Source: a phage
DNA: 51,691 nucleotides
Strand: one strand, 5' to 3'
Sequence record: OZ346160.1
The translations under genes and the position numbers were made by a program. The notes under the pieces are model-generated. The model ran no database searches. It saw only the letters and a program-made list of their open reading frames with translations, and was not told the DNA's origin. Positions 28,175-49,083 of the stretch are shown piece after piece (position 1 is the stretch's first letter; the number at the start of each line of letters is the position of its first letter).

Positions 28175-28219
28175 CATAGCATTTTTTGTTAAAACAGTTT
28201 ATTGTAATGAGTCTATTAT
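28175..28219 (+). promoter_or_regulatory. cassette copy upstream of helicase
   Basis: CATAGCATTTTTTGTTAAAAC; TATTAT at motif positions 40-45. Confidence 0.5.
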
Positions 28220-28251
28220 ATACTCCAAATGGCATTTTTTAAAGGTTTAAG

Positions 28252-30249
28252 ATGATTCCAAATATCGAAAAACAAATATCAGCGTTAGGCGAGGCAGTAA
28301 TAAAAAGCATCCAAGAGCGATTCACGGTTGGCAATATAGTGCCTTATCCTTATCAGTGCGTTGCGTATGCCGAGATCGCAAAGCGCATGAAAAACTATGA
28401 GCATCCTTTCTTCGTTAAGGCTTCTGTGTCGGCTGGCAAAACTTTGATGTTTGCGATGGTTGCTGCGCAATGCCGCAAAATGGGATTGAAAATGATGGTA
28501 CTTGCTCGCCAAGCTGAAATTGTTGATCAGGATTCGGAAGAGATCAGCAATCTTGGCGTGCCAAACTCAATCTATTGCGCCGGACTGAAAACAAAAAGCG
28601 CATACTTTCCGATCGTAGTCGGTTCTGAGGGCACTGTAGTAAACGGATTGTTTAAGTCGTTAGGTGATTATGTTCCGCACGTTATCGGTATTGATGAATG
28701 TCACCAGGTGGATTGGGAGGATCTCGCTGATGCGATAGAAAATAATGAATCTTACCAGCAGATGACCACTAAGAAGGATTTGCCTGTACTGATTGGAGAA
28801 GAACAGCAATTTGATTCCAATGGCGATCCAATGTTCGGAACAGGGCGCACACAGTACACCGTAATAATCATGGAAATGATGCGCAGGTGTCGCGAGGCAT
28901 ACGGGCACGAATTGCGAATATTCGGTATGACTGGATCTGAGTTTCGCGGCGTGGTTCCAATACTGGTTGAAGATAAGAACAAAAAGGGATTCTGGCGTGA
29001 GCAGGTGACTAACATAGACACAAACTACTTAATCAAATTCGGTTCGGTAGTGCCAACAAATTTCGGCGACGTAGGCGAGCTGGGGTATGACCTTTCAGAG
29101 TTCGAAGCCAGTAGCGAGGATGGCGTTTCAGACTTTGACGCTAAAACATTGCGCAAGATGGAAGAAAAAATCCATCAAGACGCAACAATGACACAGAAAA
29201 TCATGGCTAAAGTCCATGAGATATGCAAAGACAGGAACGGAGTTTTAGTTACATGCGCAGGGGAAAGACACTGCAAGGAGGCCGCCGCCGCACTGCCGCC
29301 AAGCGTTGAATACAGGATCATAACTGGCAAGACTGGAGATAATCAGCGTAAAGAGTGGCTGAGGGAGGCATACGAGGGAAAAGTAAAATACATCTTCCAG
29401 GTACAGGCGCTTACCACTGGCGTTAACGTTCCGTTTTGGGATACTTCTGTAATACTGAGAAAGATAGGATCTCTAACATTGCTTATCCAGCTTTTGGGGC
29501 GCGGTATGCGACTGCTTAAGCAATGGCACATTGAGCAGGGATTCAAGAAAAAAGACCATCTTGTATTGGATTTTGCCGGTACTATGGATGAGTTAGGGGA
29601 TTTGTATTTCGATCCAATCCTTGAGCAAGCGCAATTCCAAAAGAGATTTACAAACGGGAAAGAGCCTAAGACTTGTCCGATATGTGGAACGCTAAACAGC
29701 TTTTACGCTCGCCGATGTATGCACGTAGACGATAACGGGAAGAGATGCGAGCATTTTTGGACTTACAGAATTTGCGAGGACCAGGTAGATCCGAGAACGA
29801 AAAAGATAATCAAGCGCGGTTGCGGAACAAAAAACGACGTAGTGGCGAGAGTATGCCGTTGTTGCGATATTTCTCTTGTCGATCCTAACGAGAAGTTAAG
29901 CGGCAAGCACTACACCAAAAACGATTGGTGCAACGTTAAATCTTTCCGCGTTGATATGACGAAAAACCAGAAAGGAATTGTTTTTTGCTATGAGCTTGAG
30001 GCCAACGGCGACACGTTCAAGGCATACGAAAGATTTTTCCCTGAGTCAGAAAGCAACATTTGCCGGACGATATGGAGAAAAATAGCATTGCAGCACATAC
30101 CGGATCGCAAGATTGCTGGTATGGTGGCGAGCTATAGAAATGCGCGTAAAATAATGTCATACGCTCATCACATCATGCCTCCTGTACGCGTAACGCATCG
30201 CAAAAACGGCAAAGGTGAGGATAACATTGCAAAACGGGAGTTTGTTTAA
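28252..30249 (+). CDS. superfamily-2 DNA helicase with C-terminal zinc-ribbon region
   Basis: 665 aa; Walker A SVSAGKT; DECH box (GIDECHQ); motif VI-like LLGRGMR; C-terminal CPICG..C and CRCCD clusters. Confidence 0.75.
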   Translation: MIPNIEKQISALGEAVIKSIQERFTVGNIVPYPYQCVAYAEIAKRMKNYEHPFFVKASVSAGKTLMFAMVAAQCRKMGLKMMVLARQAEIVDQDSEEISNLGVPNSIYCAGLKTKSAYFPIVVGSEGTVVNGLFKSLGDYVPHVIGIDECHQVDWEDLADAIENNESYQQMTTKKDLPVLIGEEQQFDSNGDPMFGTGRTQYTVIIMEMMRRCREAYGHELRIFGMTGSEFRGVVPILVEDKNKKGFWREQVTNIDTNYLIKFGSVVPTNFGDVGELGYDLSEFEASSEDGVSDFDAKTLRKMEEKIHQDATMTQKIMAKVHEICKDRNGVLVTCAGERHCKEAAAALPPSVEYRIITGKTGDNQRKEWLREAYEGKVKYIFQVQALTTGVNVPFWDTSVILRKIGSLTLLIQLLGRGMRLLKQWHIEQGFKKKDHLVLDFAGTMDELGDLYFDPILEQAQFQKRFTNGKEPKTCPICGTLNSFYARRCMHVDDNGKRCEHFWTYRICEDQVDPRTKKIIKRGCGTKNDVVARVCRCCDISLVDPNEKLSGKHYTKNDWCNVKSFRVDMTKNQKGIVFCYELEANGDTFKAYERFFPESESNICRTIWRKIALQHIPDRKIAGMVASYRNARKIMSYAHHIMPPVRVTHRKNGKGEDNIAKREFV

Positions 30250-30668
30250 TGGCTATAACTGATAAAGGAGATTATCTTGAGTTTTACGAAAGGGATCCAA
30301 CCGACACGAGAAGGGAAGTTAATCACCAGATAGATAGTTTTCAGTGGTTGACTTATGCTCATCCTTATTTGCTGGCGTGGCATACGGTAAACGAGAATGA
30401 GAAGTCTAAAGCAACGGCGATGATTGATCAGCAGTCCGGCTTGGTTAAGGGAGTAAGCGATTTCATCATCCTGATTGGTTTAAACGGAAAATACCCCTTT
30501 GCAGCGATTGAGATCAAACGAGTGAATAAATCAGGCAAGGGGAAAGCATCACCAGTCAGCGATGAACAAAAGGCTTTTTTGCGTCGCGTTCGCAGCTTAG
30601 GAGGATTCGCTGCGGTAGCCTACGGATTCAATCAGTTTAAGTTGGCTATTGAATACATGCTTAAATAG
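30249..30668 (+). CDS. VRR-NUC family nuclease
   Basis: 139 aa; PD-(D/E)xK signature GVSDFIIL..AIEIKR; start overlaps helicase stop (TAATG). Confidence 0.55.
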   Translation: MAITDKGDYLEFYERDPTDTRREVNHQIDSFQWLTYAHPYLLAWHTVNENEKSKATAMIDQQSGLVKGVSDFIILIGLNGKYPFAAIEIKRVNKSGKGKASPVSDEQKAFLRRVRSLGGFAAVAYGFNQFKLAIEYMLK

Positions 30669-30708
30669 CACTTTTTGTTAAAACTGGCGCGATGGATTGC
30701 GCCATAAT
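30664..30708 (+). promoter_or_regulatory. cassette copy upstream of Dam methylase
   Basis: AATAGCACTTTTTGTTAAAAC overlapping upstream stop TAG; hairpin GGCGC..GCGCC; CATAAT at 30703..30708. Confidence 0.55.
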
Positions 30709-30748
30709 TCAATAACACGAGATGGCTTTTAATAGCGGAGAAATGAAA

Positions 30749-31474
30749 ATGGCTAAAGATATTTTAGATAAAGACACCCATGACGCATTCGTTAGCTTTG
30801 AGCAGTTGGAGAGAGAAACGTTTATAGGGAATGCCCTTGCAACTGGAGGCCATTACCAGGCAGTAAAGACAAATCAATATTATAAGGTAAGCGGAAACCG
30901 ATACGCTGGAAGCACTACGCCGGACGTTGTGCGAGATATGTGGAGCACGCCTCAAGAGATCGTGGAGTGGATGGAATCAGAATTTGGTGAATACGATCTC
31001 GATGCGGCAGCAAGCCAGGAAAACGCAGTTTGCGAGAAGTTCTATAGCAAGGAAACAAACTGCTTAAAGCGTTGGTGGGGTAGCAATAAGCACGTATGGC
31101 TTAACCCGCCGTACAGCAACCCAACTCCATTTATCAAGAAAGCAATTGAGCAAATGGAGCACAACAACCAAATTGATGTTTTGTTGCCAGCCGACAACTC
31201 TACAGCATGGTTTTATGAGGCGCAGAAAAACGCGGCTGAAATCATCTGGATCACTGGTGAGGTTTACGAAGAGGGTGGAGTAGAATACTCCCGCACCGGA
31301 AGAATTGCCTTTGTGTCTGGATTGACTGGTGAGCCTGTGCAGGGAAACAACAAGGGAAGCGTGATTTTTGTCATGCGCAAACTTAAAGAAGGCGAGGAGC
31401 AGAAAACGCGATACGTTAAGATCAGCGATATTTGCCCTTCTGTAACCGAACGTCGCGCACGCAAACGGAGCTAA
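30749..31474 (+). CDS. dam: DNA N6-adenine methyltransferase (phage Dam family)
   Basis: NPPY catalytic motif (HVWLNPPYSNP); start chosen at MAKDIL (GGAG 8 nt upstream; alternatives at 30722/30743). Confidence 0.7.
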   Translation: MAKDILDKDTHDAFVSFEQLERETFIGNALATGGHYQAVKTNQYYKVSGNRYAGSTTPDVVRDMWSTPQEIVEWMESEFGEYDLDAAASQENAVCEKFYSKETNCLKRWWGSNKHVWLNPPYSNPTPFIKKAIEQMEHNNQIDVLLPADNSTAWFYEAQKNAAEIIWITGEVYEEGGVEYSRTGRIAFVSGLTGEPVQGNNKGSVIFVMRKLKEGEEQKTRYVKISDICPSVTERRARKRS

Positions 31475-31478
31475 CACG

Positions 31479-31736
31479 ATGGAAAAAGAGAGAAGCGTTT
31501 ATTTAAATGAAACTGGCGAGTGGTTGTTATTTCGCGCTATGGTGTGCGATGCACTTGATAAAAACCCTAACGTGAAAAAGATGATTGATTGCGATCCGTG
31601 GGAATTTTCAAGCGCATTAGATATGAGCTTTGAGGAGACAAGAAAACTCCCGCTTGAAAAATGGCACGAACAAATCAGAAATGACATGCAAGAGTTTGTT
31701 GATTCGTGGAATTTTCAGCACGGAATGATCCACTAA
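31479..31736 (+). CDS. hypothetical protein
   Basis: 85-aa ORF; stop codon embedded in cassette motif. Confidence 0.45.
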   Translation: MEKERSVYLNETGEWLLFRAMVCDALDKNPNVKKMIDCDPWEFSSALDMSFEETRKLPLEKWHEQIRNDMQEFVDSWNFQHGMIH

Positions 31737-31779
31737 TAGCACTTTTTGTTAAAACGCCCGGCCTAGTGTCGGGCATAAT
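31735..31779 (+). promoter_or_regulatory. cassette copy
   Basis: Consensus motif overlapping stop; hairpin GCCCGG..CGGGC; CATAAT at 31774..31779. Confidence 0.55.
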
Positions 31780-31811
31780 TATTTCAACGAAGCAAACATG
31801 AGGAAATAAAA

Positions 31812-31991
31812 ATGGTGGTATTCGATAAACGCGCTTTTAATCTTGCTCAAGAAGTAGCAAAAGGTTCAGTAGAGGGCGGATCAAAGGAAGGATTCCAGTT
31901 TGATTGGGGAATCGCGATGTTCTTACTGAAAGTTGCATACGGTCACGCGCCAATTGAACAAGCGGAGGCATATTATAAGCATGAAGGTTGA
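31812..31991 (+). CDS. hypothetical small protein (59 aa, not in ORF track)
   Basis: ATG preceded by GAGGA; sits one cassette-to-ATG distance downstream of cassette 31735; hand-translated MVVFDKRAFNLAQEV... Confidence 0.35.
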   Translation: MVVFDKRAFNLAQEVAKGSVEGGSKEGFQFDWGIAMFLLKVAYGHAPIEQAEAYYKHEG

Positions 31992-32223
31992 GCAAGGAAG
32001 AGATGCGGTATGGAATCACGCTAAAGAATGCGGTATTGCCGACGATATAAAGAAGATCGCGCAATACTTTGATATTGCAGATGTGAGCATAATTAGCGGC
32101 GACAAGATGACTTTCCTCAAGGAAAGGCCGCGAAAAATGGTAAGAGTTCCAGCAGTTCCAACAAAAATTGATTTCAAAGAGGCAATGGCTAAAATCCGAG
32201 AGCCTCGCAAATATTATAAATGA
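31981..32223 (+). CDS. hypothetical protein
   Basis: Start MKVEQG overlapping previous stop; GGAGG 12 nt upstream. Confidence 0.4.
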   Translation: MKVEQGRDAVWNHAKECGIADDIKKIAQYFDIADVSIISGDKMTFLKERPRKMVRVPAVPTKIDFKEAMAKIREPRKYYK

Positions 32224-32317
32224 GGATAGTTATCATGTGGCGCTTGTTTGTTCTACCGTTACCCGTTATCATCGCTGTTACAGTTATGTACCATATAGTA
32301 ATGAGATAGGTAGCAGA

Positions 32318-33433
32318 ATGAAAAATGTAAAAATTACAGATGAGCAATTCAAGATCGAACGGGCGGCGGGTAAGACATATAAACAGATCGCTCAAGAGTA
32401 CGGGATGAATGTGAGAAGCGTCGAGCGTCGCGCTGCGCGTCTTGCAAAACAAGGACAGGTGTCAACCATTGGAGCGCCTGGTTTTGGTGTTCATGGTGAG
32501 TCAGTAATGACAGACAAAGAAGGCAATATAATCCTCAAGTGGACAAAAACCAGCAAGGACAAAGAGCAATTAGAAGCATTGATGCGCGCAGCAATGGAGG
32601 CGTTTAGCGAGGAAGTGCCGCGATTAGATCCAGTTCCATTGCAGGAGCGTAACTATAATGAAACGCTTTCATTGTATCCGATCTTTGACATGCACTTAGG
32701 AGCTATGGCACATAAGCACGAATGCGGAGAAAATTGGGATACAGCTACGGCTGAGCGCGTTATGAATAACTTTATCGACTATGCTTTGATGTGCGCACCG
32801 GACAGCGAAAAGGCTGTTATCCTGATTGGTGGCGATATGCTGCATAGCGACGGCCTGGAGGCGGTGACACCTGCAAGCGGTCACGTACTTGATCAAGATA
32901 GCCGATATGCAAAATTGGTTTACGTTGCAATCCGTGCAATGCGTCGCGCAATTAATAAAATGCTGTTAAAGCATAAACATGTTGAGGTGCAGATCGTAGA
33001 GGGGAATCACGACCAATCAGGAATGATTTGGCTACGCGCAGCAATGGCGGCAGCATATGAGAACGAGCCGCGCGTTTACGTTGATGTTTCTCCTCGCGTT
33101 GTTCACCACACGCAATACGGAAAAACTTTCCTTGCGTACCATCACGGGCACACAGTGCGCAAACCTGAGACTTTGCTAATGATGTGCGCGTCAGATTGGC
33201 GGGAGGACTTCGGAAACTCAAAAACGATGTATGCGCACGTAGGGCACTGGCATCACCAGACCGTGACAGAAACGTCGCTTGGCATCGTGGAAGTGCATAG
33301 CACCCTGGCGGCAAAAGACGCATACGCCGCGCGCGGTGGCTGGAGATCTCGACGCCGTGCGGCGGTTATCATTTACGACAAAGAGCATGGAGAAGTCGGG
33401 CGATTTGTTCACTATCCAGAAATGATGAATTGA
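32318..33433 (+). CDS. calcineurin-like metallophosphoesterase with N-terminal HTH domain
   Basis: Start MKNVKIT; HTH-like KTYKQIAQEYGMNVRSVERRAARL; phosphoesterase motifs DMH, GGDMLHSD, GNHD, HHGH, GHWHH. Confidence 0.65.
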   Translation: MKNVKITDEQFKIERAAGKTYKQIAQEYGMNVRSVERRAARLAKQGQVSTIGAPGFGVHGESVMTDKEGNIILKWTKTSKDKEQLEALMRAAMEAFSEEVPRLDPVPLQERNYNETLSLYPIFDMHLGAMAHKHECGENWDTATAERVMNNFIDYALMCAPDSEKAVILIGGDMLHSDGLEAVTPASGHVLDQDSRYAKLVYVAIRAMRRAINKMLLKHKHVEVQIVEGNHDQSGMIWLRAAMAAAYENEPRVYVDVSPRVVHHTQYGKTFLAYHHGHTVRKPETLLMMCASDWREDFGNSKTMYAHVGHWHHQTVTETSLGIVEVHSTLAAKDAYAARGGWRSRRRAAVIIYDKEHGEVGRFVHYPEMMN

Positions 33434-33480
33434 TGAATTTTTATTTAAATCAATGACAAATTAAATCAAAAACTTGCAAA

Positions 33481-33578: not shown

Positions 33579-33794
33579 ATGAAAGATTTTATTAACGCAG
33601 CTACCGCCGGATCTGGCGGTTCATCTATCGCAAGCGCCGCTACAGGGCAGTTAACCATTGCTATTGCCAGTTTTGTTTTAATGGCTGCATTCGGTGCGTG
33701 GGGCGCTTACCTTCGCTGGCGTGATAGTAAAAAATTCCACGAGGCGATCGAAAAAGGTGATATTCAAAAAGCTATTGAGATCAGGGGCAAGTAA
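33579..33794 (+). CDS. holin (pinholin-like)
   Basis: 71 aa, Gly/Ala-rich hydrophobic segments, charged C-terminus; immediately upstream of SAR endolysin. Confidence 0.55.
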
Positions 33795-34693: not shown

Positions 34694-34916
34694 ATGCGTC
34701 GGGCCACATATGAGTTTCGTTTGTTGGCTTGTTCGATTCGTCGTACTGCCTTACTTCAATGCTGCAAGTGTCGCCGTACAGTTCTGCAATCTTGCGCTCA
34801 TTTTCAACCGCCGATTGCTCACTCCATCCAAAATCCCTGTCGTAAATTGTCGGTATTTCAGCAGAAGATCCGTTGTCATGATTATATACGCGAACTACTA
34901 AAAACTTGCTGGACAT
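34692..34916 (-). CDS. hypothetical protein
   Basis: 74-aa ORF downstream of cassette 34953..34997 on - strand. Confidence 0.45.
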   Translation of the reverse strand: MSSKFLVVRVYNHDNGSSAEIPTIYDRDFGWSEQSAVENERKIAELYGDTCSIEVRQYDESNKPTNETHMWPDA

Positions 34917-34952
34917 AATTTTACCTTTTGGTTGTTTCGTTTCGATGAAACA

Positions 34953-34997
34953 AATATACCCGACACTAGGCCGGGCGTTTTAACAAAAAATGCTATT
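34953..34997 (-). promoter_or_regulatory. cassette copy (near-identical inverted copy of 31735..31779)
   Basis: Reverse-complement AATAGCATTTTTTGTTAAAACGCCCGGCCTAGTGTCGGGTATATT. Confidence 0.55.
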
Positions 34998-37114: not shown

Positions 37115-37159
37115 ATTTTAACGGCCCAATACTACCCCGTTTTGTCAAAAAGTGCTATT
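37115..37159 (-). promoter_or_regulatory. cassette copy (TTGACA variant) upstream of P-loop NTPase gene
   Basis: AATAGCACTTTTTGACAAAAC; hairpin GGGCCG..CGGCCC; TAAAAT at positions 40-45. Confidence 0.5.
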
Positions 37160-37759: not shown

Positions 37760-37788
37760 GATCAGATCTCCTTTGTTTGTTCGGTGTG

Positions 37789-37833
37789 ATTATGCCAGGT
37801 TTTTACACCTGGCTTTTAACAAAAAGTGCTATT
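37789..37833 (-). promoter_or_regulatory. cassette copy
   Basis: Consensus motif overlapping methyltransferase stop; hairpin CCAGG..CCTGG; CATAAT at 40-45. Confidence 0.55.
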
Positions 37834-38930: not shown

Positions 38931-39157
38931 TAAAGAGCGCGCCAACTTTGAATATAGAAAGCGTTTTCTTCCAGTAATTCTTTTACCTGATCTTTATTGT
39001 ATTTGCGCACCTTACCGCCTGGATGGATACCAATAAGATAGCCGCCTTTGCCCTCGGTGATAGTGATTTGGCTAATTCCGCAGGACTTATCAAGTTTTAC
39101 AGCCACGCGGTGATGAGCGTCAATAGTTGCCATAATGTTTAAAACTTTTGCTTTCAT
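38930..39157 (-). CDS. hypothetical protein
   Basis: 75-aa ORF with GAGGA RBS. Confidence 0.45.
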   Translation of the reverse strand: MKAKVLNIMATIDAHHRVAVKLDKSCGISQITITEGKGGYLIGIHPGGKVRKYNKDQVKELLEENAFYIQSWRAL

Positions 39158-39956: not shown

Positions 39957-39987
39957 TTTTAAATCCTCGTTCGTTGTCGATGCGCTT

Positions 39988-40032
39988 AATATACCAATCA
40001 GAGGCGCATCGGTTTTAACAAAAAGTGCTATT
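39988..40032 (-). promoter_or_regulatory. cassette copy
   Basis: Consensus motif; hairpin CGATGCGC..GCGCATCG with TATATT in loop. Confidence 0.5.
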
Positions 40033-40451: not shown

Positions 40452-40484
40452 TTTCAAATCCTCGCATTCGTTGTCGATGCGTGT

Positions 40485-40529
40485 AATGTACAGGAATACG
40501 AGGATTTAGTTTTAACAAAAAGTGCTATT
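40485..40529 (-). promoter_or_regulatory. cassette copy
   Basis: Consensus motif overlapping stop of 40529..40792; leader nearly identical to 39988..40032 copy. Confidence 0.5.
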
Positions 40530-41754: not shown

Positions 41755-41789
41755 TTACTATCTCCTGAGCGGTTCGTTTTGATGGGATA

Positions 41790-41834
41790 ACTATACCAGG
41801 TTATCCCGATCAGCTTTTAACAAAAAGTGCTATT
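41790..41834 (-). promoter_or_regulatory. cassette copy
   Basis: Consensus motif overlapping stop; hairpin GGGATAAC..GTTATCCC; TATAGT at 40-45. Confidence 0.55.
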
Positions 41835-42136
41835 TATTGTTTTGCGTGGCGCTCAATGTAAGCGCGGATAGTTTCAGCGGTGTCTTTCGCAGATCCAAAC
41901 GTGCCCTTTACATGGCGAGCGTCGCGGTAAGCCTGGAAGAATTTACGCGCGATATTTGCAAACATTGCACCAGTAACGCGAGCGTCGCCAAAATTTGTTT
42001 CAATGGCATTGCTGATGCCGTCCTGGAATTCATGCTCAGTCATGAACAGTTCAGCCATTTCTGCGGTTTCGAACAGGTCAGCCAGTGCTGCCATATTCTC
42101 GTGGTCTTTAGCGGTGAACAGGTTCATGTTAATCAT
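41834..42136 (-). CDS. hypothetical protein
   Basis: 100-aa ORF; first gene of - strand array, downstream of cassette 42177..42221. Confidence 0.5.
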   Translation of the reverse strand: MINMNLFTAKDHENMAALADLFETAEMAELFMTEHEFQDGISNAIETNFGDARVTGAMFANIARKFFQAYRDARHVKGTFGSAKDTAETIRAYIERHAKQ

Positions 42137-42176
42137 TGTTTGGTCCTCAGTAAGTGCGGTTCGTTTCGATGTGTGT

Positions 42177-42221
42177 AATGTACCCGATCAGGTGGCCTGA
42201 GTTTTAACAAAAAGTGCTATT
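42177..42221 (-). promoter_or_regulatory. cassette copy (first of - strand array)
   Basis: Consensus motif; TACATT at 40-45. Confidence 0.5.
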
Positions 42222-42251
42222 TGACGGTTATCGCCAGGATTGCGATCGAAA

Positions 42252-42339
42252 TAATCAAAAGCAATCATTCGTAATCAAATCACGTCAAAATGATGATTGC
42301 CTTTGCAAATTTGATGAGAAAAGTAATCACGCTTAATCA
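42252..42339. repeat. TAATCA iteron array with 10-bp periodicity
   Basis: TAATCA/CAATCA at 42252, 42262, 42272, inverted TGATTG at 42294, TAATCA at 42324 and 42334. Confidence 0.45.
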
Positions 42340-42499
42340 TTGGTTGCAGGGGAGATAGTGAAACCCTCCCCTCTTGCCTCACTTTTCCGCCTGGCTGTCA
42401 GTGGTTGTTATGTTACGTTCCCGCGTGTTCTTTTGTTGACCTTCCGCAAAATACGATAACAAAAAATAACAAACAATACCTATATAATACATTGAAAAA

Positions 42500-42770
42500 T
42501 AAGGATTATTTATTTATATGTATCTATATATTCTCTTTTGTTATCTTGGTTATTGTGGTATTTGGTGGGGGTATATAGTTTTTGTGTATCTATATGTGTG
42601 TATGGGTATGTAGGGGCATATATATCTATATGGCACTTTCCGCGAGAAAACTTCGATAACAAGCAATGATAACATTGATTTATAAGGAAAAATAACGCCC
42701 ATATTGTTATTGTGCCACCATATAAAATTGATAAAACACGCGGGAACAAGAAAAAACAGTTGACACATTA
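42500..42770. repeat. AT/TG-rich regulatory region, paralogue B
   Basis: Diverged direct repeat of 21490..21700; internal direct repeat TTCCGC..GATAACAA (about 42450..42680). Confidence 0.5.
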
Positions 42771-42788
42771 AATAGCATTATTGATAAT
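42760..42788 (+). promoter_or_regulatory. sigma70 promoter (start of + strand small-gene array)
   Basis: TTGACA (42760..42765) - 17 nt - GATAAT (42783..42788); AGGAGG RBS and ATG 42817 follow. Confidence 0.6.
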
Positions 42789-42816
42789 GCCCACACCTAA
42801 CAACCAGGAGGAAGAA

Positions 42817-43281
42817 ATGAGCGAGCAATCATTCACTGACACGCTGCGCCGTGCCGCTATTATGCTGGCTAATGGCGAGGAAGAGACGATCAAGATTCCT
42901 GACGCGTATTTGCAGGTCCACATGTTCGGCAAGAAGTCGGCAAGCAATCCGGCGGCCTACATTCGCCAGATCATGAGTCGAGTGCCAGAAGTCGCCGAGC
43001 GGGGGCGCGTATCCGTTACCCGTGGCGTTTACGGGCCGGAAGATGAAAACTTCGGTAGCACTTTCTACGAGGTAAGGATTGTTGAAGGCCGTCGCAAGGT
43101 TTACAACAAAGAGGCACTGGAAAGGGCAGTACGCCAGGCTAAGCGCAAGGTTGCAGAGGCGATCATTGATATGTCACCCAACCTGGCAAACTATGCGCCG
43201 GAAGAGTATGAAACATTATCAAAGGCCGTCGCTGACTTTCACGCGATGATCAAAAAAACTTTCCTGGAGGATGAGCAATGA
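42817..43281 (+). CDS. hypothetical protein
   Basis: Start MSEQSF with AGGAGG RBS; first gene after consensus sigma70 promoter. Confidence 0.5.
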   Translation: MSEQSFTDTLRRAAIMLANGEEETIKIPDAYLQVHMFGKKSASNPAAYIRQIMSRVPEVAERGRVSVTRGVYGPEDENFGSTFYEVRIVEGRRKVYNKEALERAVRQAKRKVAEAIIDMSPNLANYAPEEYETLSKAVADFHAMIKKTFLEDEQ

Positions 43282-43550
43282 AAAAGGCGTTAATCGGCGT
43301 TTTGGCGGCAATGGCATTCCTGACCGGATGCAAAGAAGATGGCGCGCATGTTGGCAATGTGCAGATGGCTAACCCTGGCGATGACTACAGCGTAAGGGAG
43401 CTATTCACCGCCGATGGTTGCACTGTTTACCGATTCTATGACGGTCGCACTGTTTACTTCACCAACTGCAAGGGCACTACTAGCTGGGAAGTGTCGAAAA
43501 GCAATGGCAAAGGCACGAAGACAGAACATATGACCGTCGAGACAAAATAG
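43278..43550 (+). CDS. small lipoprotein
   Basis: 90 aa; signal peptide with lipobox FLTGC; coupled (ATGA) to upstream gene. Confidence 0.55.
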   Translation: MKKALIGVLAAMAFLTGCKEDGAHVGNVQMANPGDDYSVRELFTADGCTVYRFYDGRTVYFTNCKGTTSWEVSKSNGKGTKTEHMTVETK

Positions 43551-43590
43551 CACTTTTTGTTAAAACGCCAGGCGCAAAGCCTGGCATAAT
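43546..43590 (+). promoter_or_regulatory. cassette copy
   Basis: Consensus motif overlapping stop; perfect hairpin GCCAGGC-gcaaa-GCCTGGC; CATAAT 43585..43590. Confidence 0.55.
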
Positions 43591-43622
43591 AGCCTCATCG
43601 AAACGAGATTGAGGAAACAAAA

Positions 43623-43808: not shown

Positions 43809-43823
43809 TTAGCAGGTGAATAA

Positions 43824-44009
43824 ATGAAAACGAAATTAGTCCATAAGTCAGAAATCAAGATCGGCGATACTGTGATTCACAACGGAGAGCTTAGAACGGT
43901 TGGCAAAGAGTCAATAAGCCACGATGAATTTATGGGGATCTTGTTGTTCGGTGACTCTTATCGTCTTGGTTACAAGATGGTTGAGCTTGTGGAAGAAGTG
44001 AAATTCTAA
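43824..44009 (+). CDS. hypothetical protein
   Basis: 61-aa ORF. Confidence 0.45.
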   Translation: MKTKLVHKSEIKIGDTVIHNGELRTVGKESISHDEFMGILLFGDSYRLGYKMVELVEEVKF

Positions 44010-44053
44010 ATAGCACTTTTTGTTAAAACTCAAAAACGATAACCAGGCATAAT
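44009..44053 (+). promoter_or_regulatory. cassette copy
   Basis: Consensus motif after stop TAA; CATAAT 44048..44053; hairpin GGGCG..CGCCC downstream. Confidence 0.5.
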
Positions 44054-44108
44054 AAATCACATAGGGCGGCACGGGGTCGCCCAGTTAAACCAATCAGGAG
44101 AAAGCACC

Positions 44109-45002
44109 ATGTTAAAACTTGCTGACATTAAATTCCCGATCACCTTCGAATCTCGCGGCATTGGTCATTACATTTTTACCGATGAAAAAACATGCCATAA
44201 GGTTGATATGAATAGCGACAAACTAAGCCCATCAACAATGGAGATTGAACACTTTATTGATGCACACAATACGCACTACCACGCCCTTAAAGACTATGGC
44301 TATGCAATGCCAGGCTACACATGTTTGCACTACAAGCCATATAAGGGCCAGGTGTTACCAGTGCGCTCACCGGAACGCGCAGAGATTCCGATGGTCCACA
44401 TGAAAACCTGCGACTACAAAAAGCTGTGGTGCTTAAGCGTGGATAATATCAAGTATCCGATCACGTTCCACACGACTGGTAAGTCAACGATTCGCTACAC
44501 ATCGCGCGACAATGGCGTTTATAGCGATGGCACGAAATCAGAGTTGAAAGTTGATTTCTTTGTCAACGGTCACAACAAATTCAATCCGCACAACGAAGAG
44601 GATAAAGTGTACTACGTGGAAGACATTACAAAACACTTGTTTGGAGAAACTCCATTCGGCGGCGGAAAGACGTCAATTCAAAAAATCATTGGCGAGGAGA
44701 TCCACAAAGCGGCTGCCGAAATGAAAGCGCCTGGAGGATGGCGTATTGATAAGAGCGCCTTTGCAAATCAAGAAATCGTAACGCAGGGCGCGATTGAAGA
44801 TATGCCAGTTGCAGCCACGCTAAAAGGAGTCCGGCTTGATGACGGCACCTGGTATGAATTAACGGCTACACCAAAGACGATCGAGATTCATGATGATGTT
44901 GTTATTCTCCTGCTTCACTATGGCGGCACTAAAAACCGGACTGTTGCGGGTGAGATCAGCATCAAGCGCGGAACGATGGTTAAGTGGAAGGTCAAAGTGT
45001 AA
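44109..45002 (+). CDS. hypothetical protein with internal tandem duplication
   Basis: 297 aa; repeated segment (LADIKFPITFESRG.. and VDNIKYPITFHTTG..). Confidence 0.5.
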   Translation: MLKLADIKFPITFESRGIGHYIFTDEKTCHKVDMNSDKLSPSTMEIEHFIDAHNTHYHALKDYGYAMPGYTCLHYKPYKGQVLPVRSPERAEIPMVHMKTCDYKKLWCLSVDNIKYPITFHTTGKSTIRYTSRDNGVYSDGTKSELKVDFFVNGHNKFNPHNEEDKVYYVEDITKHLFGETPFGGGKTSIQKIIGEEIHKAAAEMKAPGGWRIDKSAFANQEIVTQGAIEDMPVAATLKGVRLDDGTWYELTATPKTIEIHDDVVILLLHYGGTKNRTVAGEISIKRGTMVKWKVKV

Positions 45003-45045
45003 ATAGCACGAATTGTTAAAACTCAAATGTGGGGCCAGGTATAAT
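45002..45045 (+). promoter_or_regulatory. cassette copy (GAATTG variant)
   Basis: AATAGCACGAATTGTTAAAAC; hairpin GGGCC..GGCCC with TATAAT in loop (45040..45045). Confidence 0.5.
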
Positions 45046-45075
45046 GGCCCTACTTTCAACGAGAGGGGAAACGCG

Positions 45076-45303
45076 ATGGAAAGTTTAATCATCCAGAAAA
45101 AAATGAAGTGTGTCAGTGTAGCGCCAGGTTGCGGTTTTATGTTCACAGTGGGGCATATCTACTCCGCGCAGAAAATGAGAACATCAACCGGATCGTTTTA
45201 CGTCAATAACAATCAAGGATTCCGCATGTTCCTGAACGGTCAAAACGGCAACGAAATTTGCGCTTACGCAGACATTATCGCAACCTTTGAGGAAGTGAAA
45301 TAA
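45076..45303 (+). CDS. hypothetical protein (paralogue pair A)
   Basis: Start MESLII with RBS; C-terminal half similar to next gene (FLNGQNGNEI.. vs YLNGENGTEI..). Confidence 0.45.
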   Translation: MESLIIQKKMKCVSVAPGCGFMFTVGHIYSAQKMRTSTGSFYVNNNQGFRMFLNGQNGNEICAYADIIATFEEVK

Positions 45304-45539
45304 TGATCATCGAAAACAACTTTCTTTGCGTTAAGAGCAATCGACCATTCTTCACGCCTGGCAAGGTGTACCAGGGCAAGAAGGACACAAGAGATGGTCA
45401 CTCTTATCATGTTCACTGCAACAACGGATACAAGTTTTACCTTAACGGCGAGAATGGAACTGAGATTGTTGCTTTTGAAAACGTAGTTGCTGAGTTTGAG
45501 CAGCTTACAGACGCTGAATTTGAGGAAGTGAAAGAATGA
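45303..45539 (+). CDS. hypothetical protein (paralogue pair B)
   Basis: 78 aa; similar to preceding gene; coupled starts. Confidence 0.45.
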   Translation: MIIENNFLCVKSNRPFFTPGKVYQGKKDTRDGHSYHVHCNNGYKFYLNGENGTEIVAFENVVAEFEQLTDAEFEEVKE

Positions 45540-45721
45540 TTGTCTACGTTGTGCATGGTGATATTTACTACGACGGAGAATACTTTGAGGGAGCTTTCAG
45601 CGAATTTGATAAGGCAGAACAGCACGCTGAGACGCTTACGGATTGTTACGACGAAGTAACAATACGCGAGATAAAACTTGATGATCCAACATATGATGGC
45701 GACAAATGGAACGTAAAATGA
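45536..45721 (+). CDS. hypothetical acidic protein
   Basis: 61-aa ORF coupled to neighbours. Confidence 0.4.
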   Translation: MIVYVVHGDIYYDGEYFEGAFSEFDKAEQHAETLTDCYDEVTIREIKLDDPTYDGDKWNVK

Positions 45722-46428
45722 AAAAATACACTTTCGAACTGTGGGGCAAAAAGTACGAATTAATCACCAGCAAGCCGATTGTTATCGTTGACCTGGACGG
45801 CACATTATCGGACGGATCGCATCGTTTGCATTTGCTGCCAACTGAAAACTTGCACCTTACGGAATCGTGGCGCGAGTTTAACAGGGCCGCCGCCGGAGAT
45901 TCACCGATTAAAAGCACTATCGCGGTTATTAACGGTTTATGGGTGTCGGGATTTGCCATCGTCATCTTGACCGGACGCAGCGACGAGGTTCGCTATGAAA
46001 CCTGCAAATGGTTGAATGAGAACGGCGTGAAGTTTGACGAAATCATCATGCGCCGCCAGGAGGACAACCGAAAGGATACGGTTATTAAAGAAGAAGCCTT
46101 GCGCGCTATTGGCCTGGACAACATTGTTTGCGCCTTTGACGATTCGCCTAACGTGGTTAAGCACTTCCGCAGCTTGGGGATCACAACCTATCAGGTCACG
46201 GAATACGACAAGCCACACGCTCACATACAATCTCACGGCGTGGAATCAATCAAGATCACGAAGCGCGCCCGATTCGTCGGCAGCAAAGACAGCCTGGTCA
46301 ATGCCAGTTTTACCAGAGGAATAGCCTATGACGTTGTTTCTTATCATGACAAGAGTTTTATAGTTCATGATGATTCTGGATGCGCCTGGTCATTCAATCA
46401 TAGTGACGGCGATTTTGTTAATGCGTAA
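45718..46428 (+). CDS. HAD-superfamily phosphatase (polynucleotide 3'-phosphatase-like)
   Basis: Start MKKYTF; HAD motif I VIVDLDGTL near N-terminus. Confidence 0.6.
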   Translation: MKKYTFELWGKKYELITSKPIVIVDLDGTLSDGSHRLHLLPTENLHLTESWREFNRAAAGDSPIKSTIAVINGLWVSGFAIVILTGRSDEVRYETCKWLNENGVKFDEIIMRRQEDNRKDTVIKEEALRAIGLDNIVCAFDDSPNVVKHFRSLGITTYQVTEYDKPHAHIQSHGVESIKITKRARFVGSKDSLVNASFTRGIAYDVVSYHDKSFIVHDDSGCAWSFNHSDGDFVNA

Positions 46429-46471
46429 TAGCACTTTTTGTTAAAACATCTCAACGGGCTTGCGGTATAGT
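46427..46471 (+). promoter_or_regulatory. cassette copy
   Basis: Consensus motif after stop; hairpin GGGCTT..AAGCCC with TATAGT in loop (46466..46471). Confidence 0.5.
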
Positions 46472-46502
46472 AAGCCCATCAACAACAAACGAGGATTAAA
46501 TC

Positions 46503-46766
46503 ATGGCTAACAAGATCGAGTTTTTTAAAGCGGTAGACATTATTGATGGCGCGCCTAGCTTCTTTGCGATCCATTCTATTGACGGCAAGGATATTGGGTA
46601 CAACGTTATCCGTCGAGATGGAATATCAAAACTTAGTGACCTGGTAGGCCATATTGTGTCAATCGGGAAATGCGCATGGCCCGATTCGCCACGAGAGCCG
46701 CGCCGCCGCGACATGATTAATCCTGAATTGCTTTACACGCTGGTAGTAGAGGGAGAAAATAAATGA
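46503..46766 (+). CDS. hypothetical protein
   Basis: 87-aa ORF downstream of cassette. Confidence 0.45.
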   Translation: MANKIEFFKAVDIIDGAPSFFAIHSIDGKDIGYNVIRRDGISKLSDLVGHIVSIGKCAWPDSPREPRRRDMINPELLYTLVVEGENK

Positions 46767-46948
46767 TTTGGTTACTTGCTTTTTTGGTTGTTTTTCTTTA
46801 CATTTCAGGCTTGTTTACGTTCCGCGCGTTGGTGAAATATTCTGACGCGACAGACAAAGACGATAAAATCGTTCTCGCTTTCTGGTTTGTTTGGGTGTGG
46901 TTAGCAATTTACGAGATCATCAGAGACAAACAGAAATTTGAGTGGTGA
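46763..46948 (+). CDS. small membrane protein (two predicted TM segments)
   Basis: 61 aa, hydrophobic stretches LLAFLVVFLYISGLF and IVLAFWFVWVWLAIY. Confidence 0.4.
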   Translation: MIWLLAFLVVFLYISGLFTFRALVKYSDATDKDDKIVLAFWFVWVWLAIYEIIRDKQKFEW

Positions 46949-47158
46949 TTCTTGCTATGGCGCATTCATGCAGTGCGCCATGTTGAGAAAACCTAAAGGG
47001 GGAAATGATGCGTAACTTTGAAAAATCATTACCAAAAAGAAGCGTCGCGGATACGATGAGCATGTAGAGTTTGTGAACAAGCAACGCAAGAAGCGCAACG
47101 AAGACAAGAAGCGTGGGAAAAAATTTAATGCGATTTTTCGCTATGGAGATCATTAATC

Positions 47159-47749
47159 ATGAAACGAGACATTATCATCCTTAATGGGCCGCCAGGTTGC
47201 GGGAAGGACACTATTGCAGCTTACCTAACTGGCCATCGTTACCCTGCCGTCAAGGCGTCATTCAAACAGCCGATGTTCGATATTGCTTTTTCTATGCTGG
47301 GCGTGTACCGATACGATGAATTTATGGACCTGTACAACGACCGAGAGCAAAAAGAAAAGCCTCAAGTTATCTTGGGCGGCAAGTCACCTCGACAATTCAT
47401 GATCTGGATTAGCGAGGACGTAATGAAGCCAGTTTTTGGGGATCACTATTTCGGGCGTCGAATGGTTGAAGAGATTCACGAGATGTACCGAGATTTGGCG
47501 GTTGTGATCAGTGATGGCGGATTCCCCGAAGAAATCAAGCCGCTGGTTAAGGCAGGGCATGAAGTGCATATTTGCCGATTGCATCGCGACGGCTTCACGT
47601 TTGCTGGCGATTCGAGAGACTACATTGACCTGAGCGGTTATCACTATCGAATCCACCACTATGATTTCCACTTGCAGGACGGCAAGCCAGATCTGGCTGT
47701 AAACGAGATCGTCAATACGGTCAAATGGAAGCACACACAGATTAAATAG
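47159..47749 (+). CDS. P-loop nucleotide/polynucleotide kinase (putative)
   Basis: 196 aa; Walker A ILNGPPGCGKDT at N-terminus; same array as HAD phosphatase. Confidence 0.55.
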   Translation: MKRDIIILNGPPGCGKDTIAAYLTGHRYPAVKASFKQPMFDIAFSMLGVYRYDEFMDLYNDREQKEKPQVILGGKSPRQFMIWISEDVMKPVFGDHYFGRRMVEEIHEMYRDLAVVISDGGFPEEIKPLVKAGHEVHICRLHRDGFTFAGDSRDYIDLSGYHYRIHHYDFHLQDGKPDLAVNEIVNTVKWKHTQIK

Positions 47750-47789
47750 CACGAATTGCTAAACGCGGGGTTATCGGCCCCGCTATAAT
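47745..47789 (+). promoter_or_regulatory. cassette copy (GAATTGCTAAAC variant)
   Basis: Motif overlapping stop TAG; hairpin GCGGGG..CCCCGC; TATAAT 47784..47789. Confidence 0.55.
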
Positions 47790-47819
47790 GCTCACATCAA
47801 CAATCAAGAGGAAATCACA

Positions 47820-48200
47820 ATGGTTAACATTCGAAAAATCCGCGTCGGCACTAAATTCTTAGTTACTTACGCAATTCCAGATAGCGGAATGAAGAAGGGC
47901 CAGATTGTTAAGGTTGATAGCAAAAGGTTCGGAATCCCTGGTATCAATGGCTATCTAATCAATAGAGATCTTGGATTCGACGGCTTCGCTATCCGTGCGC
48001 TTGAGGGTATTGTTGCCACTCTTAAACGAATCACTAATCATCGCGGCTGCCCAATCAAGACGATTAAAGCGCCAGTAAATTACGGCAAACTGGATAATCG
48101 TCGAATCCGCCGCCTGGCGCGTAACGCGTTAAAATTCCGTGGCGTAGGCGATGATTTCTACTATGGATACAAGAGGATTGCGCGCAATGCTGGGAAATAA
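47820..48200 (+). CDS. hypothetical basic protein
   Basis: 126-aa ORF downstream of cassette. Confidence 0.45.
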   Translation: MVNIRKIRVGTKFLVTYAIPDSGMKKGQIVKVDSKRFGIPGINGYLINRDLGFDGFAIRALEGIVATLKRITNHRGCPIKTIKAPVNYGKLDNRRIRRLARNALKFRGVGDDFYYGYKRIARNAGK

Positions 48201-48299
48201 CAATAACGCAACGAATCCTAAGCCACCTTTTGATTTTCATTCCGCAATGATTGCGGTATTATCAATGCTACTTTTTCTTTATAGCATGAGGGCGCTACT

Positions 48300-48548
48300 A
48301 TGGTTTTTAACGCATTGAAACGAATGTTTAAGCCGGAATACCGGATCGTATTTTGCCGCGACTGTTCTACTTATCATGTGCAGCGACGCAGCTTAGGCGG
48401 CAATTGGCACTATGTTACAGACGACTTTTTCGGCATCATTGCCACTGAATTTAAGTATTACAGTGATGCTTATATGTACGTGAAGAAGCGCCACCGCTTA
48501 CGCAAGTGTCGTTTTTCCGTGCTGATTCACGTTAATGATTGTTACTGA
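48300..48548 (+). CDS. hypothetical protein (Cys-containing)
   Basis: 82-aa ORF. Confidence 0.4.
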   Translation: MVFNALKRMFKPEYRIVFCRDCSTYHVQRRSLGGNWHYVTDDFFGIIATEFKYYSDAYMYVKKRHRLRKCRFSVLIHVNDCY

Positions 48549-48738
48549 GGTGAAAATGAAAACTGGTATTATTATTCTTTTCCTGATCCTTTTCGGTAGC
48601 CATTTAACCATTAACTATGAGGGCATTATGGCCTTTTGGGGCAACTTGATGATTTTTGCCGCTGGTTCAATTACTGGCTACTCTGACGGGAAAAAGGACG
48701 GCGTTCGCAAGATGCTGATGGGACTTAAACAAAAATAA
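48535..48738 (+). CDS. small membrane protein
   Basis: 67 aa with hydrophobic segments; true start may be the internal MKTG. Confidence 0.35.
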   Translation: MIVTEVKMKTGIIILFLILFGSHLTINYEGIMAFWGNLMIFAAGSITGYSDGKKDGVRKMLMGLKQK

Positions 48739-48749
48739 GGGGATCTGAA

Positions 48750-49040
48750 ATGGCAAACAAAACTTACCGCAAACTACTGGTTAACGCTTTTGAAAACATC
48801 GCGCAGTCTAACAAGTGGAACGACTCTAAACACTCGCCAGTCACAATGAAGCGCGCCGGATTCAAAAATGCTCGTTCATGGGCGCGAGCTTTCGCAGCTT
48901 GCTATATGCCGGATGGTGGGCTAGGAACGATGAACGATTTTTTGATCAACATGATAGAGGAAGCGGCGCGAGAGGATCGACCGCTGACACAGCGAGATTT
49001 TGACGACTTCGCGCGCGATGAGCTTTACTATCTGAGCTAA
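48750..49040 (+). CDS. hypothetical protein
   Basis: 96-aa ORF; stop embedded in cassette motif. Confidence 0.45.
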   Translation: MANKTYRKLLVNAFENIAQSNKWNDSKHSPVTMKRAGFKNARSWARAFAACYMPDGGLGTMNDFLINMIEEAAREDRPLTQRDFDDFARDELYYLS

Positions 49041-49083
49041 TAGCACTTTTTGTTAAAACTTCCGCAAGGGCATTTGATAAAGT
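49039..49083 (+). promoter_or_regulatory. cassette copy
   Basis: Consensus motif after stop TAA; hairpin AAGGGCA..TGCCCTT with GATAAA in loop. Confidence 0.5.

Follow-up and report, generated by a model that had tools for sequence, protein, structure and literature searches.

The 21-nt motif and its probable promoter cassettes

The stretch analyzed here, sequence record OZ346160.1 (51.7 kb, all of which is referred to as the window), is the near-complete genome of a T1-like siphovirus of the genus Warwickvirus (Tempevirinae, Drexlerviridae), and this report deals with a 21-nucleotide (nt) motif that recurs in it at a fixed distance from a -10-like hexamer. The identity to Escherichia phage MikeNSara is 99.3% over 6 kb, and to tiwna, tonnikala, and FritzSarasin (all Warwickvirus) it is 98-99%. 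The gene order matches that of an annotated relative, with terminase, head, and tail genes on the plus strand (1-21 kb), a recombination/replication block (21-34 kb), and small early genes in two divergent arms (34.9-42.2 kb, minus strand; 42.8-51.7 kb, plus strand) that are set apart by a 0.55-kb non-coding stretch.

The motif has the form AATAGCACnnnTTGyTAAAAC. A search with AATAGCACTTTTTGTTAAAAC at no more than three mismatches returned 17 matches in the window compared with 0.01 expected, and nine 21-mers within the genome are identical. Relaxed matching and an independent, unbiased repeat finder agreed on 22 co-oriented copies, 12 on the plus strand and 10 on the minus strand. An earlier note on this DNA had claimed at least 22 recurrences, and this count bears it out; its list of copies, however, had overlooked those at 6414 (-), 10164 (-), and 26613 (+). 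The motif starts are as follows.

Plus strand (+): 1565, 16019, 26613, 28175, 30664, 31735, 43546, 44009, 45002, 46427, 47745, 49039
Minus strand (-): 6414, 10164, 21385, 34997, 37159, 37833, 40032, 40529, 41834, 42221

The bare repeat is already published. For phage TLS, 21-nt direct repeats (DR1-DR18) with the consensus aaATAGCACnnnTTGnTAAAA, present in 21 copies and located approximately 76 nt before start codons, have been described, and that paper notes similar repeats for T1, Rtp, and Rogue1 as well (German, Misra, Kropinski et al. 2024, PMC11447400). All 22 copies in the window fit this consensus with 0-2 mismatches at the specified positions. The two are the same element in sister genera, with the same orientation relative to transcription, the same distance of ~76 nt, and the same T/G/A sub-variants. 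In the available text and table, the authors leave the function of the repeat between stoperator, enhancer, and UP element, accept three sigma70-like promoters only (P01, P51, and P57), and treat the repeat alone, connecting it neither with a -10 hexamer at a constant distance nor with a conserved start site, with hairpins, or with mosaic boundaries (PMC11447400).

Exactly such a link to a -10 hexamer is seen in the window. At motif positions 40-45, TAnnnT is found in 12 copies and CATAAT in another five, and the probability of 17 hexamers in 22 copies at one offset is ~1e-27 at a background of 0.014 per position. Two further copies (45002 and 21385) carry TATAAT or TATAGT at positions 39-44, and no usable -10 hexamer is present at the fixed offset in the remaining three (1565, 6414, and 26613). 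The gap between TTGyTA (motif positions 12-17) and the hexamer is 22 nt. The earlier note had reported the hexamer in at least 15 copies and had judged the gap too long for canonical sigma70 spacing, and both statements hold. The spacing also persists under a proper alignment: among 386 distinct modules taken from other Drexlerviridae, the first base of TAnnnT falls on motif position 40 in 220 modules, on 39 in 19, and on 41 in 31, with 0-23 at each of the remaining offsets.

Further conserved features became apparent in a profile of 256 family-wide modules, at positions that were not used for module selection. Taking the conserved A at motif position 52 as the predicted transcription start, the motif spans -51 to -31, and the profile shows an extended -10 signature (T-17 in 65%, G-14 in 82%) as well as a start block with C-1 in 64% and A+1 in 85%, followed by ATCGAAACGA / T-C-G-A-A-A-C and an A-rich stretch. 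The 18 bp between the motif end and the hexamer are variable and contain only 0.05-0.2 bit of information; as their sequence is unconserved while the distance holds, it is the spacing itself that is kept. Within the box, ATAGCAC, TTG, and TAAA are 95-100% invariant throughout the family, and the G and C of the ATAGCAC core reach 100%. No conserved -35 hexamer is found 16-19 bp from the -10 in the 256-module profile.

The cassette is a complete intergenic unit of ~80 bp, in which the regulatory box is fused to the end of a coding sequence. In nine copies, the upstream gene ends at the TAG within the motif itself (positions 3-5), and in eight it ends at an adjoining TAA; examples among these 17 copies are 30664, 43546, and 47745. 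In 17 of the 22 copies, a Shine-Dalgarno sequence and a start codon follow, the latter at motif positions 63-101 (mostly 74-86) and thus ~76 nt from the motif start, and the motif does head most early and middle genes on both strands, as had been stated in the earlier note. Exceptions are the motif-only copies 1565, 26613, and 6414, and the copies antisense to their neighbors (6414, 10164, and 26613). On the coding strand, the proposed cassette would read in the following order: stop codon of the previous gene, 21-bp motif (-51 to -31), 18-bp spacer, extended -10 (G-14, TAnnnT from -12 to -7), start at the A of CA 7 nt past the -10, A/C-rich leader AUCGAAACGA, Shine-Dalgarno sequence, and ATG. 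The cassettes of the window are listed below.

28175-28236 (+): module before the helicase gene (ATG 28252); motif CATAGCATTTTTTGTTAAAAC at 28175-28195, -10 TATTAT at 28214-28219, predicted start ~28226
30664-30725 (+): module; motif 30664-30684, spacer hairpin GGCGC/GCGCC, -10 CATAAT at 30703-30708, stop of the upstream open reading frame (ORF) = TAG of the motif
31735-31796 (+): module; motif 31735-31755, spacer hairpin GCCCGG..CGGGC, -10 CATAAT at 31774-31779, ATG 31812
34936-34997 (-): module; motif 34977-34997, spacer hairpin as in the 31735 copy, -10 TATATT, then CATCGAAACGAA
37098-37159 (-): TTGACA-variant module; motif 37139-37159, -10 TAAAAT in the loop of GGGCCGT/ACGGCCC, ATG 37086 (helicase)
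37772-37833 (-): module; motif 37813-37833, spacer hairpin GCCAGG/CCTGGC, extended -10 TGG+CATAAT
39971-40032 (-): module; motif 40012-40032, -10 TATATT, CATCGACAACGA; one edge of a cassette replaced relative to FritzSarasin
40468-40529 (-): module; motif 40509-40529, -10 TACATT; opposite edge of the cassette replaced relative to FritzSarasin
41773-41834 (-): module; motif 41814-41834, -10 TATAGT at the apex of GGGATAA/TTATCCC; mosaic breakpoint at 41835
42160-42221 (-): first leftward module, adjoining the non-coding genome-end region; motif 42201-42221, -10 TACATT, without a strong hairpin
43546-43607 (+): module; motif 43546-43566, hairpin GCCAGGC-GCAAA-GCCTGGC, TGG+CATAAT, CATCGAAACGAG, ATG 43623
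44009-44070 (+): module; motif 44009-44029, -10 CATAAT at 44048-44053, ATG 44109
45002-45063 (+): GAA-variant module; motif 45002-45022, -10 TATAAT shifted from position 40 to 39 (45040-45045), mosaic breakpoint at 44995/45001
46427-46488 (+): module; motif 46427-46447, -10 TATAGT at the apex of GGGCTT/AAGCCC; mosaic breakpoint at 46427
47745-47806 (+): GAA/C-variant module; motif AATAGCACGAATTGCTAAACG, hairpin GCGGGG/CCCCGC, -10 TATAAT
49039-49100 (+): module; motif 49039-49059, -10 TAAAGT in the loop of AAGGGCA/TGCCCTT, ATG 49116
21324-21385 (-): diverged-copy module; motif AGTAGCACTTTTTGCTAAACG, TATAGT closer by one base, ATG 21311
16019-16080 (+): late-region module; motif AATAGCACAATATGTTAAAGC, -10 TACAAT at 16058-16063, heading an inserted ORF (ATG 16081)

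The architecture is not restricted to the window. The same search pattern recovers the published TLS repeats and finds 23 motif copies in T1 (Tunavirinae), 20 each in TLS (Tlsvirus) and Rtp (Braunvirinae), and 19 in Klebsiella phage PKP126 (Webervirus). A 20-kb stretch of Vibrio phage Vc1 (MT360682, locus L128) contains the motif at 800, 3161, 6430 (-), and 7496 (-) with the same 18-bp distance to the -10, from which it follows that the system is not tied to enterobacterial hosts. The fixed spacing, which the earlier note had described for this one genome, thus extends to T1, TLS, Rtp, PKP126, and Vc1, and a scan of IMG/VR yielded many more Drexlerviridae-sized contigs with the motif. Klebsiella phage XY3 was considered as a family member and rejected, as it offers only a distant Cro-like match, lacks the motif, and does not belong to the Drexlerviridae.

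Two canonical promoter classes were also considered and rejected. TTGyTA does not serve as a sigma70 -35, since motif positions 35-40 have no A at the second place and consequently provide no -10 at 16-19 bp. Sigma54 promoters have GG and GC doublets 12 bp apart (TGGCAC-N5-TTGC) and a start ~12 bp past GC; the motif reads TAGCAC-N3-TTGC, with AG instead of GG and a spacing shorter by 2 bp, and is followed by a sigma70-type -10 at a fixed distance. To our knowledge, none of the sites of the host factors CRP, FNR, IHF, Fis, ArcA, and DnaA fits the motif.

Hairpins, mosaic boundaries, and copies outside the cassettes

The variable region behind the motif is rich in hairpins. For 130 de-replicated modules, motif positions 19-64 were folded and compared with shuffles in which the motif and the -10 were held fixed. 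The mean minimum free energy (MFE) was -10.4 kcal/mol in the modules versus -6.1 in the shuffles, and values of -12 kcal/mol or lower were reached by 47% of the modules versus 4% of the shuffles. Strong gap-free inverted repeats occur in 64 modules, compared with 4.7 expected. Folding at -8 kcal/mol or below was found for 88 modules, with 31 hairpins in the spacer and ~53 carrying the -10 at the apex or in the loop. The spacer type has a GC stem of 6-9 bp that ends at position 40 and a loop of mostly 4-6 nt, and in the -10-enclosing type, the hexamer is located in the loop or apex and the 3' arm ends at positions 51-57.

The internal stem mismatches are 12 G.T on the coding strand, no A.C, and seven others. 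Wobbles of the G.T kind only on the sense strand argue that pairing is selected on one strand, i.e., in RNA rather than in a DNA cruciform, which is disfavored on the same grounds. Furthermore, the predicted start always comes after the 5' arm, so that only RNA arriving from the upstream unit would form the hairpin. Terminal leftward promoters, which have no co-directional gene upstream, are without hairpins in all five genomes checked (MFE -1.2 to -8.0). In the T1 annotation, three spacer-type hairpins are called rho-independent terminators (T1 38973-39001, 39998-40024, and 41980-42007). The Rfam scan of the window gave no family match. Judging from the strand-specific wobbles and from the precedent described below, it is likely that the variable GC hairpins form in read-through RNA and act as attenuators or 3'-end stabilizers, insulating successive units from one another.

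This precedent is the promoter-early stem-loop (PeSL) cassette of the T4-type phages RB49, phi1, PST, and nt-1, for which promoter and terminator activities were measured, the stem-loops proved to terminate in experiments, and cassettes were shown to recombine with one another (Arbiol et al. 2010, PMC2839356; Comeau et al. 2014, PMC4122927). The likeness is considerable: both combine a conserved promoter with a variable stem-loop that contains G-T pairs and either lies between the upstream box and the -10 or overlaps the latter, both flank small ORFs and coincide with the boundaries of indels and replacements, and both end in a Shine-Dalgarno sequence and a start codon. However, the PeSL promoter is of the canonical sigma70 type, its hexamers being 17 bp apart, whereas TTGyTA in the window lies 22 bp from the -10 and inside an invariant 21-bp box. 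Moreover, PeSLs belong to T4-type phages and the present putative ones to siphoviruses of ~50 kb. By this comparison, the window cassette is a PeSL-like design with what appears to be an activator-type upstream box.

The cassettes also mark the points at which related genomes part. Breakpoints of homology relative to FritzSarasin or tonijn coincide with module edges in 11 of 31 cases, where 3.3% would be expected (binomial P ~2e-9, with the two comparisons sharing breakpoints). The module-edge breakpoints lie at 6372, 16020, 40032, 40510, 41835, 44995, and 46427, and the segment 40033-40509, which is bounded by two motif copies, has been replaced wholesale relative to FritzSarasin. Being near-identical, the cassettes also act as points of recombination at which gene cassettes are swapped, as the comparison shows. 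Between the tail assembly and tail tip genes, an extra ORF (16020-16563; ATG 16081, ~158 aa) has been inserted immediately after a motif copy; FritzSarasin and tonijn lack it, and the 5' end of the predicted transcript falls at its Shine-Dalgarno sequence.

Four copies depart from the scheme, either by the missing -10 or by their orientation.

1565-1585 (+): motif copy between the terminase large subunit gene (stop = TAG of the motif) and the portal gene; no -10 at the fixed offset, terminator hairpin downstream
6394-6414 (-): inverted motif-only copy, forming the 16-bp spacer of the plus-strand promoter TTGACG-16-TATCAT (6389-6416) upstream of the major capsid gene
10103-10164 (-): antisense module in the tail-gene region; motif 10144-10164, -10 TAGATT at the fixed offset, pointing into the bidirectional terminator 10084-10101
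26613-26633 (+): motif-only copy, inverted relative to the tail-fiber gene and adjoining its ribosome-binding site (AGGAGG/ATG)

From the three copies that have the motif without a -10, it can be argued that the box is bound in its own right. The inverted motif as spacer of the capsid promoter recurs in T1, TLS, PKP126, and three IMG/VR loci (L013, L025, and L029), i.e., in at least four genera, and this layout suggests that a reader of the motif would repress this late promoter. The promoter locus itself (6389-6446, plus strand) contains the near-consensus TTGACG-16-TATCAT and precedes the major capsid ATG at 6459; directly after the promoter follows a hairpin (GGCCGTTA/TAACGGCC with TTTTAT), the 5' arm of which overlaps the predicted start.

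The 10164 (-) module would yield an RNA of only ~38 nt, in antisense orientation to the terminal part of the transcript of the major tail gene. At this site, the inverted motif adjoins the Shine-Dalgarno sequence of the next plus-strand gene (10178), and T1 has an equivalent at 18851 (-). The tail-fiber gene on the minus strand is preceded, in this order, by a canonical promoter at 26782-26754 within the primase gene's 3' end, a strong terminator at 26670-26687, and the motif copy at 26613-26633, equivalents of which are found in T1 at 34901 (+) and in Rtp at 33761 (+). For the tail-fiber gene, an ATG near 26596 is a more likely start than the listed GTG at 26620, which is probably incorrect.

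The Cro-like regulator and possible readers of the motif

Good intergenic -35/-10 pairs of the sigma70 type occur at only four places in the window, one of which belongs to the candidate gene for a motif reader.

42760-42788 (+): canonical promoter of the first rightward gene (DUF7174), TTGACA-17-GATAAT, without the 21-nt motif; equivalent of TLS P01
28215-28243 (-): canonical promoter of the regulator gene, TTTAAA-17-TATAAT; its transcript crosses the inverted 28175 motif; equivalent of TLS P57
21754-21781: canonical sigma70-type promoter of exonuclease VIII; equivalent of TLS P51
26782-26754: canonical sigma70-type promoter of the tail-fiber gene
27688-28164 (-): candidate motif reader, a conserved 158-aa Cro-like helix-turn-helix regulator (phrog_2856; T1 gp23, TLS gp57, Rtp52)

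When 40 early and middle proteins were screened against PHROGs, and 10 of them also against Pfam, this regulator was the only recognizable DNA-binding protein. No relatives of sigma factors, anti-sigma factors, MotA, or AsiA were detected in this screen, which very small or divergent proteins could escape. The predicted model of the central domain has a predicted local distance difference test (pLDDT) score above 95 and resembles all-alpha Cro proteins (Xfaso 1 Cro, N15 Cro). The regulator is found in 850 phage records and is 49-65% identical across subfamilies. Its most conserved segments, residues 10-35 and 100-130, lie outside the helix-turn-helix; the former is a basic arm predicted to be disordered (DKRTINGNNGTRRGKDKKPRK), and the latter belongs to a Cys-containing C-terminal domain (GFRASFCRPD..NGKP..RC).

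The regulator gene and the helicase cassette are divergent, with their -10 hexamers back to back at 28214-28220 (TATTAT on the plus strand, TATAAT on the minus strand), and by this overlap the two promoters should be mutually exclusive. In the leader of the regulator, the inverted motif stands next to the Shine-Dalgarno sequence, a layout that is conserved in five genomes, and the overlapping -10 arrangement is present in T1, TLS, Rtp, and PKP126. Seen from its layout, this is the classic arrangement of an autoregulated switch, and with its own canonical promoter and an inverted motif in its leader, the regulator would control its own synthesis.

With regard to function, we put the probability that the cassettes are the main early and middle promoters of the phage, with the -10 half read by the host sigma70 holoenzyme, at roughly 0.9. 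The -10 half carries the invariant features that this holoenzyme reads, no -35 is located at a usable distance, and the promoter reading, already put forward in the earlier note, is supported by the fixed -10, the G-14, the conserved CA start block, and the downstream ATGs. Because TTGyTA lies 22 bp from the -10 and no -35 is found at 16-19 bp, an extra reader of the upstream motif is the most economical idea. A sequence-specific factor bound to the motif at a class II position would supply the missing upstream contact and recruit or stabilize RNA polymerase. Known class II sites are centered at -41.5 (CRP or FNR), -42 (lambda cI at PRM), and -43.5 (Mu Mor at Pm).

The motif contains an imperfect dyad, TAGCA-N5-TG(C/T)TA, with its center at motif position 10, which corresponds to -42 with the predicted start. 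It is perfect (TAGCA-N5-TGCTA) in the C variant, which accounts for 57% of the family copies, and keeps four of five arm positions in the T variant, which dominates in the window. The likeness to class II sites comprises the center near -42, adjoining or overlapping the -35 position, the poor or absent -35 with an often extended -10, the strict helical phasing, and possibly the imperfect dyad, which would suit a helix-turn-helix dimer; a candidate activator can be named for the window. In contrast to class II sites, the motif is asymmetric in its flanks (AA versus AAAAC), and with ~20 uses per genome it represents a general promoter type rather than a few regulated promoters. The 95-100% invariance of the box is untypical of sequences that are read only by sigma70 and alpha. 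On balance, we see an even chance that the motif works by binding a dedicated factor in class II geometry. That this factor is the family-wide Cro-like regulator, the best candidate at hand, as its modeled fold would allow, is a tentative assignment, and we consider it somewhat doubtful.

Several points weigh against this interpretation. In the literature searched, no transcription start, RNA-seq, or binding data were found for any T1-like phage. Extended -10 promoters can function without an upstream factor, and since the earliest leftward promoter (42221) is already of the motif type, a model built on activation alone would need the activator before any of the leftward genes is expressed. 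The dyad is only suggestive, as chance would produce a 5-bp inverted repeat within a 21-mer with a probability of a few percent. Proteins of the Cro type mostly act as repressors, the predicted recognition-helix residues of the regulator vary (SQQ, SNQ, NLK, TPQ, SIQ) while the DNA box is invariant as far as the Vibrio phage, and the best-conserved parts of the protein are the basic N-terminal arm and the C-terminal domain and not the helix-turn-helix. The motif is invariant in T1, TLS, Rtp, PKP126, Vc1, and the IMG/VR contigs, which leaves no variation that could be correlated with the regulator. Finally, no U-run follows the -10-enclosing hairpins, which are hence not classical terminators.

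One alternative, which we regard as unlikely, dispenses with a phage factor altogether. Host RNA polymerase alone would read the motif as a phage-optimized upstream element, with the T5/A4 tracts contacted by the alpha C-terminal domains and TTAAAA or TTGyTA contacted loosely by sigma region 4. The UP consensus is A/T-rich from -59 to -38 with an A-tract from -46 to -41, whereas the invariant ATAGCAC core (G-47 C-46 A-45 C-44) is not A/T-rich and the extension of the motif to -31 is off the UP register. On the side of sigma, the extended -10 (G-14, T-17) makes a -35 dispensable, TTAAAA of the T variant (positions 15-20) matches TTGACA at four of six positions with a 19-bp spacer, and for the 45002 copy the score is 10/12 at a spacer of 18 bp; the sigma70 range, however, includes neither 19 nor 22 bp. 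A universally conserved reader would fit a motif that is the same across hosts out to Vibrio, and the first leftward promoter is of the motif type, but nine identical 21-mers per genome contrast with the far greater variation that is normal in host-read promoters. The motif-only copies, one of them within the spacer of another promoter, would be left without a role. The UP element is among the ideas listed in the TLS paper (PMC11447400).

Improbable in our view is also an operator function, in which the motif would bind a phage repressor, possibly the Cro-like regulator, for the shut-off of early and middle genes or a stoperator-like block of elongation, the promoters being factor-independent extended -10 promoters. 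A stoperator analogy is raised in the TLS paper (PMC11447400), and the copies are strictly oriented. The many short, asymmetric intergenic sites oriented with transcription indeed resemble the stoperators of mycobacteriophage L5; these, however, are 13 bp long, serve the repressor of a lysogenic phage, and are not placed at a set distance from a -10, while the window phage is virulent. The modeled Cro fold of the regulator is consistent with an operator, as are the inverted copies in the regulator leader, against the ribosome-binding sites of the tail-fiber and tail-chaperone genes, and in the capsid spacer, where only repression is possible. Nevertheless, a repressor needs no 18-bp spacing kept to within 1 bp amid complete spacer turnover, and the promoters would be left without any upstream recognition. 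Placing the early genes and the major late capsid gene under one repressor also has no temporal logic unless the protein is an activator as well.

The two functions can be joined in a single phage protein that reads the box in two ways, activating ~17 early and middle extended -10 promoters from -42 and repressing its own gene and late genes from the inverted copies. In such a scheme, sigma70 region 4 might be bridged or repositioned to TTGyTA 22 bp from the -10, and the protein would be titrated as the genome, with its more than 20 sites, replicates, which would switch the program from early to late. As a joint claim, this is a rather speculative proposal; if true, it would represent a transcription strategy not described before for the classical T1 family.

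An appropriation of sigma as in T4 middle transcription, with a MotA-like activator and an AsiA-like remodeler of sigma region 4, is very unlikely. The logic is the same: host polymerase is used, the -10 is good, a usable -35 is missing, and a conserved box stands upstream in many copies. Many small early proteins without an assigned function are also available as candidates. However, the T4 MotA box is centered at -30, 11-13 bp upstream of the -10, while the box in the window differs in sequence, is centered at ~-42, ends at -31, and is separated from the -10 by 18 bp. As the box position (-51 to -31) does not fit, and as no MotA, AsiA, or anti-sigma family was detected among the 40 screened proteins, the analogy to T4 middle promoters drawn in the earlier note fails. 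A TGCTT Mot box is described in PMC4122927. For practical purposes excluded is the notion that the 21-mer is the full promoter of a T7-like phage RNA polymerase, starting at its 3' end, with the hairpins as 5' stem-loops: length, strict conservation, and strict orientation resemble promoters of single-subunit polymerases, and sense-strand hairpins directly downstream would be accounted for, but no RNA polymerase or sigma gene was found in the window genome or TLS, and the -10 at fixed distance with invariant A-11/T-7, the G-14, and the CA start would be left unexplained.

Significance within the T1 family and neighboring loci

T1 belongs to the original set of T phages. Its relatives, the Drexlerviridae, count among the coliphages and Klebsiella phages most often met in therapy collections and in outbreaks during fermentation. 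Genome papers of T1 relatives list 3-10 recognizable promoters for ~80 genes. The present analysis assigns ~17-19 predicted promoters per genome together with their anatomy (box from -51 to -31, extended -10, predicted +1, and leader) throughout the family and names a single candidate regulator, which makes the transcription program of the T1 family directly testable. The cassettes could be used as ready-made, portable parts that combine a promoter with a putative insulator. They also mark points of gene exchange, which helps both in engineering these phages and in reading their mosaicism.

Regarding novelty, a literature search with the motif sequence returned nothing beyond the TLS paper. 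In the literature searched, which did not comprise the genome papers of T1 and Rtp, no mention was found of an extended -10 at a fixed 18 bp from the motif, of the start block, of hairpins specific to one strand, of the overlap with stop codons, of the enrichment of breakpoints, or of the copy in the capsid promoter. The earlier note had overlooked the G-14 of the extended -10, the start block, the hairpins, the stop-codon overlap, the role of the cassettes as boundaries, and the published status of the repeat (PMC11447400).

Two further loci belong to the region of the early arms. The DUF7174 gene (42817-43281, plus strand) is the first rightward gene and has the best canonical promoter of the genome. 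Its product was considered as an alternative reader of the motif and rejected, as it is poorly conserved (15-31% identity between subfamilies), has only two retrievable homologues, and gives no meaningful fold match: the AlphaFold2 (AF2) model, of moderate quality with a pLDDT of 76, consists of a mixed alpha/beta N-terminal domain and long C-terminal helices, and its fold matches reach a template modeling (TM) score of no more than 0.3. The region between the early arms (42222-42760) is AT-rich and non-coding and contains irregular TATCTATAT and GTATGTGT-like repeats; it is the counterpart of the genome-end/terminal-repeat region of T1, and pac or origin functions may be located there.

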